This document shows, one piece after another, positions 14,780-15,218 of a DNA stretch of 64,000 bases. Location of the stretch: the IMG/VR virus record IMGVR_UViG_3300028797_000097. One strand, given 5' to 3'. Each line of letters starts with the position of its first letter. Positions within the stretch are counted from its first letter, which is position 1. The notes below the pieces were generated by a model. It was not told where the DNA came from and made no database searches. It saw only the letters and a list, made by a program, of their open reading frames with translations. Origin of the DNA: a virus. Lineage: Duplodnaviria > Heunggongvirae > Uroviricota > Caudoviricetes. The translations under genes were made by a program, and so were the position numbers.

Positions 14780-14831
14780 ATTTTCACCTTTAATATTTAA
14801 ACAATTTTATATATTTATAAATTTTAAATAT

Positions 14832-15160
14832 CTATCTATACACACGTTCAAAATATCTGTAGAGACAATAAGCCTATTTAAGGAAATAGGCAAAAGACTA
14901 ATACATCTGTCTTCGACTAGTGGATTTACAAACGAGCTTACGGGTCGGTCATCCTGTACTCCGGCTATATCTCGTCCTACCAATGGCGGCTAAATATACT
15001 GCTTGCTAGACAGTATTTCGATGAACATTCCATTATCCGTTAATACCGGATCATATAAATGAAAGACACAGTTCTAGTATCTTTAATGGCTAACCCTCTA
15101 CCGACAGTTCCATTGGATTGGTCTTCGCTCCGAGGAATTAGACTTTGGAATTTATGGAAT
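14832..15160 (-). ncRNA. Candidate structured non-coding RNA (~330 nt), family unknown
   Basis: ORF-free, GC-richer than its flanks, at least 8 helices with G-U wobbles only on the minus strand, own promoter at 15161-15191. Confidence 0.6.
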
Positions 15161-15191
15161 CAAATATAGATTGATTGTAAAATTTTGTAAA
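15161..15191 (-). promoter_or_regulatory. Promoter of the candidate ncRNA (TTTACA-N17-TATATT, with a CTATATTTG core)
   Basis: Located immediately 5' of the first predicted helix. Confidence 0.6.
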
Positions 15192-15218
15192 CTAAAGAAT
15201 ACCAAAAAGTCTGATTTT

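Follow-up and report, generated by a model that had tools for sequence, protein, structure and literature searches.

The closest described relative of the RNA studied here is cow-rumen-2, which is held in Rfam as RF02947, typed there as "Gene; sRNA," and represented by a model of 106 nt. The motif is reportedly one of the 224 described by Weinberg et al. in 2017. Its name is absent from the main text of PMC5737381, and in the searchable literature it appears solely in an Rfam table, with no dedicated study. Rfam 15 gained 2 covarying pairs for cow-rumen-2 (PMC11701678). ROOL and GOLLD are ornate, pseudoknotted, phage-encoded RNAs of unknown function, and ROOL has been found in the rumen too (PMC12286853). 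The RNA described below is likewise ornate, pseudoknotted and phage-encoded, but it measures about 325 nt against about 580 nt for ROOL and more than 800 nt for GOLLD, it lies outside tRNA islands, and the ROOL and GOLLD family models gave no sequence or model match in it.

We analyzed a stretch of 64,000 nt (the window) of a phage genome, G000, whose record is a complete virus of 415,750 bp with terminal repeats. The genes around the locus are T4-like and include a RegA-type translation repressor, a head-closure protein and a RuvC-like resolvase, as well as a terminase domain; the ORF directly 3' of the RNA carries the Pfam domain PF12322 (T4_baseplate). As had been predicted, positions 14780-15218 are the sole long ORF-free gap of the window (at least 200 nt between ORFs of at least 80 aa), and 14832-15160 has a GC content of 39.5% compared with about 30-33% in the 2-kb bins around it. 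On the minus strand, 14917-15022 matches RF02947 at 107.7 bits (E 7e-20), well over the gathering threshold of 66 bits and across model positions 1-106, the entire model; this is the sole Rfam match in the window, and the rest of the gap has no meaningful Rfam score. With the consensus helices also kept with covariation, and with an origin in rumen environmental DNA of no classified organism, as for RF02947, the RNA truly belongs to an orphan family that is already catalogued. The original prediction had described an unannotated structured RNA of about 330 nt with its own promoter, possibly a new class, whose novelty a strong Rfam match would remove. Since the core of the RNA is RF02947, the claims that it is unannotated and a new class fall; a standalone unit of about 325 nt stands, on the strength of covariation, a promoter class and a weak hint of a transcript. 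The unit has the same helices as the Rfam model, which covers about one third of it; it is 3 times longer and adds a 5' domain, a junction and 3' hairpins. The Rfam entry thus omits two thirds of the molecule, together with its location in T4-like jumbo phages, its 3-4 copies per genome and its own promoter. The features are as follows, in the direction of transcription.

15163-15191, minus strand: sigma70-like (host-type) promoter, with TTTACA at 15186-15191, a 17-nt spacer and TATATT at 15163-15168
14832-15156, minus strand: predicted full-length RNA of about 325 nt, its start placed from promoter spacing and its 3' end, at 14832 or slightly past it, from conservation
15089-15146, minus strand: 5' domain, defined by covariation and not in the Rfam model
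15132-15146 with 15089-15098, minus strand: helix of the 5' domain with one bulged nucleotide, followed by a conserved internal loop
15113-15118, minus strand: terminal hairpin of the 5' domain, loop AYYCAA
15030-15089, minus strand: variable multi-hairpin junction, with three hairpins here and 1-3 in relatives (folding z = -3.37)
14917-15022, minus strand: RF02947 core, in which a short hairpin leads through a conserved joiner to a long interrupted stem, whose terminal loop is near-invariant
14983-14987, minus strand: pseudoknot 5' strand GCCAU in the joiner, pairing with 14948-14952
14948-14952, minus strand: pseudoknot 3' strand AUGAC in the core terminal loop, pairing with 14983-14987
14894-14913, minus strand: variable 3' hairpin, from local folding
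14872-14891, minus strand: conserved 3' hairpin with a UCC-containing loop and a near-invariant AGGCU on its 3' arm
14832-14871, minus strand: 3' tail, the first 40 nt of which are the same in genome copies 1 and 2
14812-14819, minus strand: T4-late-type promoter motif TATAAATA, which belongs to the downstream baseplate gene and forms a boundary outside the RNA

The promoter that had been noted directly 5' of the RNA is of the class TTTACA-17-TATATT, which is the phage's dominant host-type class: the genome holds 91 copies, 75 of them non-coding, against 7.75 expected. Its position would set the transcription start near 15155. Of 73 type-A homologues, 72 have a -10-like element, and in 50 of 73 the RNA is followed by a late-type motif similar to TATAAATA. 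Copies of the promoter class are densest at 290-415 kb of the genome and may help host identification. A Bacteroidota host had been considered from the look of the -10 element, but as the genome-wide class is TTTACA-17-TATATT, we draw no conclusion about the host from it. Host searches with GroEL matched relatives of the phage protein only, and one with a cadherin-repeat protein, restricted to longer proteins, returned no Fibrobacter name.

In a bovine rumen RNA library (X1), a separate contig of 304 nt covers 14832-15134 with one substitution and one inserted base, and the neighboring contigs end at 14785 and 15230. Several homologous contigs occur in two further RNA libraries (the runs are from bovine and sheep gut, the low-share runs X3, X5 and X7-X11 being set aside), and in run X2 one contig spans the promoter into the upstream gene. 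These contigs give a weak hint of transcription, as they carry no strand, ends or level and DNA carry-over is possible. The RNA has no conserved reading frame: in 86 of 94 homologues, stops interrupt each of the three frames. A 58-codon ORF on the minus strand at 14807-14983 lies over the 3' half of the RNA and is unconserved among homologues.

When the entire 360 nt is folded, it does no better than shuffled sequences (z = -0.94), so the structure rests on covariation and not on single-sequence energy. Across about 95 homologues, compensatory changes are found in the core, the 5' domain and the variable junction, and they define helices in all three domains; G-U pairs fall on the minus strand, as had been stated, which places the molecule on that strand. 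In the core, 96.9% of cells are paired and 17 of 19 pairs are compensated, and covariation is seen in three helices that had been proposed beforehand: the hairpin at 14996-15016, the long stem 14971-77/14930-36 and the CGG/CCG helix inside that stem. In the 5' domain, 88.9% of cells are paired (about 40% in slid controls), and there are 48 compensated cells against a shuffle mean of 14, with 0 of 500 shuffles as high; this shuffle control ignores relatedness and the compensation counts are not probabilities, though many pairs show 4-5 pair types. The helices TTCCAT/ATGGAA and GTCT/AGAC of the original prediction conflict with this covarying domain, and an arm that it gave as TAGAGATA is absent from the region. 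Its junction with three hairpins was borne out: in 8 orthologues, 98.8% of the cells are paired and 11 of 20 pairs show compensation, the middle hairpin being the weakest. The two 3' hairpins (14894-14913 and 14872-14891) were likewise recovered by local folding (z = -3.4). The second of these was flagged as terminator-like; since conservation and the RNA contig both extend beyond it, we do not regard it as a typical terminator. We also considered whether two self-complementary UCGA stretches form a helix that closes the core; by inspection, such a helix is not maintained across subgroups.

A long-range pairing, GTCGGT/ACCGAC (15100-05/14944-49), had been put forward as a possible pseudoknot or switch. 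It can form in full in only 20 of 76 homologues, and its 3' arm varies with no matching change in the 5' arm and no compensation, so it does not hold. An unbiased mutual-information scan flagged a different pairing, between the joiner (14983-87) and the core terminal loop (14948-52), and the homologue sequences support this pseudoknot. Its last three positions are paired in 95 of 95 homologues, and its two terminal pairs occur in six combinations (AU/AU, UU/AA, AA/UU, CU/AG, AC/GU and GC/GC), while one position is mainly a C-A mismatch and otherwise U-A. Two divergent homologues, L369 and L370, retain the pseudoknot with wholly different letters. It is not drawn in the cmscan structure line of RF02947, and the two extra pairs of Rfam 15 may be pairs of this pseudoknot. 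A further candidate contact is a kissing interaction between the 3' hairpin at 14872-14891 and the core-loop GG, which the sequences support only partly: the hairpin loop reads CCC in 4 of 4 GGG variants and ACC in 3 of 4 GGU variants, but UCC is missing in 9 of 52 GGA sequences. The joiner AGCC might also pair with the 3' GGCU, though the 3' arm has a local partner too.

Sequence conservation lies chiefly in loops and joiners, and the stems swap pairs freely, as would be predicted for tertiary contacts or a binding surface. Variation in the periphery was also seen: three divergent homologues under the Rfam cut-off (L369, L370 and L371) keep a second type of 5' domain and apparently have no 3' hairpin, L306 is a longer variant with additional arms, and L272 has lost the 3' hairpin loop and retained the remainder.

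The genome holds exactly 4 dispersed copies of the RNA. A related complete genome of 424 kb (G001) also has 4, one of 411 kb (G011) has 3, and a 248-kb record has 1. None of the 4 copies in G000 falls within the two regions (G000:C1:292120-312930 and 369431-375450) that contain its 47 tRNA genes. The approximately 95 distinct homologues come from viral and gut metagenome contigs and were collected by pattern scans followed by profile filtering, the profile search discarding many chance matches of the collection scan; GenBank phage records (n = 50,697) contain no homologue. The few matches in genome collections are on contigs with phage-like flanks in goat and other metagenome-assembled genomes (MAGs), with flanking proteins up to 99% identical to those of this phage, and we read them as mis-binned phage DNA. 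Contigs filed under two Methanobrevibacter MAGs (L174, L183, L222, L229, L236 and L245) hardly differ from this phage at three of its RNA loci; they are probably mis-binned phage DNA as well.

Among the four paralogues and the homologues, conservation runs from the promoter to about 14832, well past the Rfam model. Of 38 new loci found with a pattern for the 5' domain, all 38 run on into the core, which shows that the two belong to one RNA. Three of the 4 loci are common to both complete genomes, where the flanking proteins are only 43-67% identical. Among 27 relatives fetched with the baseplate protein (L025 and L399 of this survey being on one contig), 21 have the RNA upstream, one is truncated and 5, a single clade, lack it; in that clade the gene order at the site is different and the RNA lies at another locus. 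From copy to copy the RNA is followed by different genes, and at several loci these lie on the opposite strand. The RNA is thus independent of its neighboring genes, which, with the clade lacking it at this site, points to action in trans and argues against both a cis-acting leader and active mobility. At one locus, the RNA subtype differs from phage to phage. Copies 1 and 2 of the genome (14832-14871 here and G000:C1 near 272850-272900) share an identical 40-nt 3' tail even though their cores are only 68% identical, whereas for same-locus orthologues from more distant phages the figure is only 43-75%. An identical tail beside cores so diverged suggests exchange by gene conversion between the two copies. 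In the fourth copy (G000:C1:359004-359117) the 5' domain is of a different type, which is conserved in turn and matches nothing in Rfam, and the promoter motif is of the late type. The same type of 5' domain is found in L057, L081, L108, L117, L077 and L146, and its bulged helix is maintained through G-C/A-U compensation.

Several known RNA classes were considered and set aside. Consistent with what had been predicted, ARAGORN finds no tmRNA or tRNA, there being also no conserved open frame, and no RNase P covariance model matches at E up to 10. RNase P RNA is of similar size, and a helix with AAG, a bulged pyrimidine and CC, together with GGCU near the 3' end, recalls its helix P4; the P1-P4 topology is nevertheless absent, as both bulged strands covary with local partners and the 3' GGCU does not co-change. 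One internal-loop strand is similar in sequence to the S element (J8/7-P7) of group I introns. This strand sits in the internal loop of a hairpin, within which it pairs, and a group I intron is further rejected because the RNA is intergenic with its own promoter, has no upstream R element and has no Rfam match to such introns. Domains for reverse transcriptase (PF00078) and TnpB/Cas12f (PF07282) were not found in the complete genome, so that an omegaRNA or a retron/DRT ncRNA would have no cognate protein of these two kinds there.

Taking these results together, we consider it highly probable that this is a trans-acting noncoding RNA and the full-length form of cow-rumen-2. As an account that includes function, we tentatively favor a standalone gene of large T4-like rumen phages, encoding a folded RNA of about 325 nt that serves as a decoy or scaffold. 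In this account, host RNA polymerase would transcribe the RNA early from TTTACA-17-TATATT, and the RNA would act in trans, its core folded compactly and its peripheral arms variable. The invariant unpaired nucleotides would form a tertiary fold and a binding surface, and the several copies may provide dosage and different timing, the fourth copy having its other 5' domain and late-type promoter motif. The least certain step is the binding itself: through its shape the RNA may capture a protein or ribonucleoprotein, serving as a decoy or scaffold directed at a host factor. For the function, then, a decoy or scaffold that binds protein is our best guess, made with the same tentativeness. The conservation pattern of loops and joiners would be explained just as well by a ribozyme or by an assembly of RNA alone.

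A ribozyme of a new class, for instance an RNA-processing enzyme for the phage's large tRNA set, is unlikely, though it fares better than the other alternatives. Cow-rumen-2 would then be an unrecognized class of trans-acting catalytic RNA whose active core is pseudoknotted and whose 5' domains can be exchanged, and the Rfam model would be its central fragment. Such an enzyme would agree with the many invariant unpaired nucleotides of the pseudoknotted core, with the 47 tRNA genes, and with the one-bulge helix preceded by AA, which resembles RNase P helix P4 and is seen twice in the RNA. However, the RNA matches no family of ribozymes, introns or RNase P even at E values up to 10, and the bulged helices pair locally by compensation and not with the 3' GGCU as they would in P4. 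The intergenic setting with its own promoter also argues against a ribozyme, as does, more weakly, the X1 contig, which is unbroken through 303 nt.

Somewhat less likely than a ribozyme is an RNA that assembles with itself or with other RNAs into homo- or hetero-oligomers, in analogy with ROOL and GOLLD. The precedent of ornate phage-encoded RNAs of unknown function (PMC12286853) speaks for it, and the several conserved loops would be available for it; the contact between the core-loop GG and the 3' hairpin loop, which covaries partly, could be intermolecular. On the other hand, the RNA is half the size of ROOL, matches neither family, and has 0 of its 4 copies in a tRNA cluster.

That the RNA is a selfish or mobile non-autonomous element and not a gene useful to the phage is very unlikely. 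Multiple dispersed copies, a locus whose subtype varies, and paralogues with an identical 40-nt tail could all be read in that way. Yet the site is stable in phages whose neighboring proteins are only 54-60% identical, the copy number is constant at 3-4, the genome has no reverse transcriptase or TnpB/Cas12f domain, and the RNA-less clade shows a different gene order in place of a clean empty site.

Marginally less probable again is a part in a replication origin, as its primer transcript or as a DNA element, on the model of a T4-type R-loop or a ColE1 RNA II-like system. The existence of several dispersed copies, the AT-rich tract that comes after the promoter, and the position of one copy class beside a recombination-nuclease-like gene (as identified from sequence) would accord with an origin, but that tract contains the late promoter motif of the next gene. 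Cumulative GC skew and gene strand switch near G000:C1 343-345 kb and 157 kb, which are candidate origin or terminus regions, and 0 copies of the RNA are at the skew switches near 157 kb and 343 kb. T4 origins are not known to require a conserved ornate fold.

A cis-acting leader or riboswitch of the downstream gene is improbable in the extreme: at this locus the RNA does lie upstream of the baseplate gene and on the same strand, but elsewhere the downstream genes are unrelated between copies and in several loci on the opposite strand, and the baseplate gene has a late promoter motif of its own and exists without the RNA in one clade. Least credible of all is a sponge for CsrA/RsmA, which the near-invariant core loop brings to mind through its likeness to the CsrB repeat consensus CAGGAUG: a CsrB/RsmZ-type sponge requires several invariant GGA loops, and this RNA has a single such loop, whose GGA is replaced in several lineages by GGG or GGU together with a compensating change in the pseudoknot partner; no CsrA was found in the phage genome.

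Returning to the standalone trans-acting gene, we note that its boundaries, domains, pseudoknot and natural compensatory variants are now defined, so that the whole RNA can be synthesized for tests; work on the 106-nt fragment alone would miss two thirds of the molecule. The presence of the RNA in 3-4 diverged copies in T4-like jumbo phages probably reflects a role under selection. If that role is indeed one of a ribozyme or an anti-defense decoy, it would add a new kind of function to those of phage RNAs.
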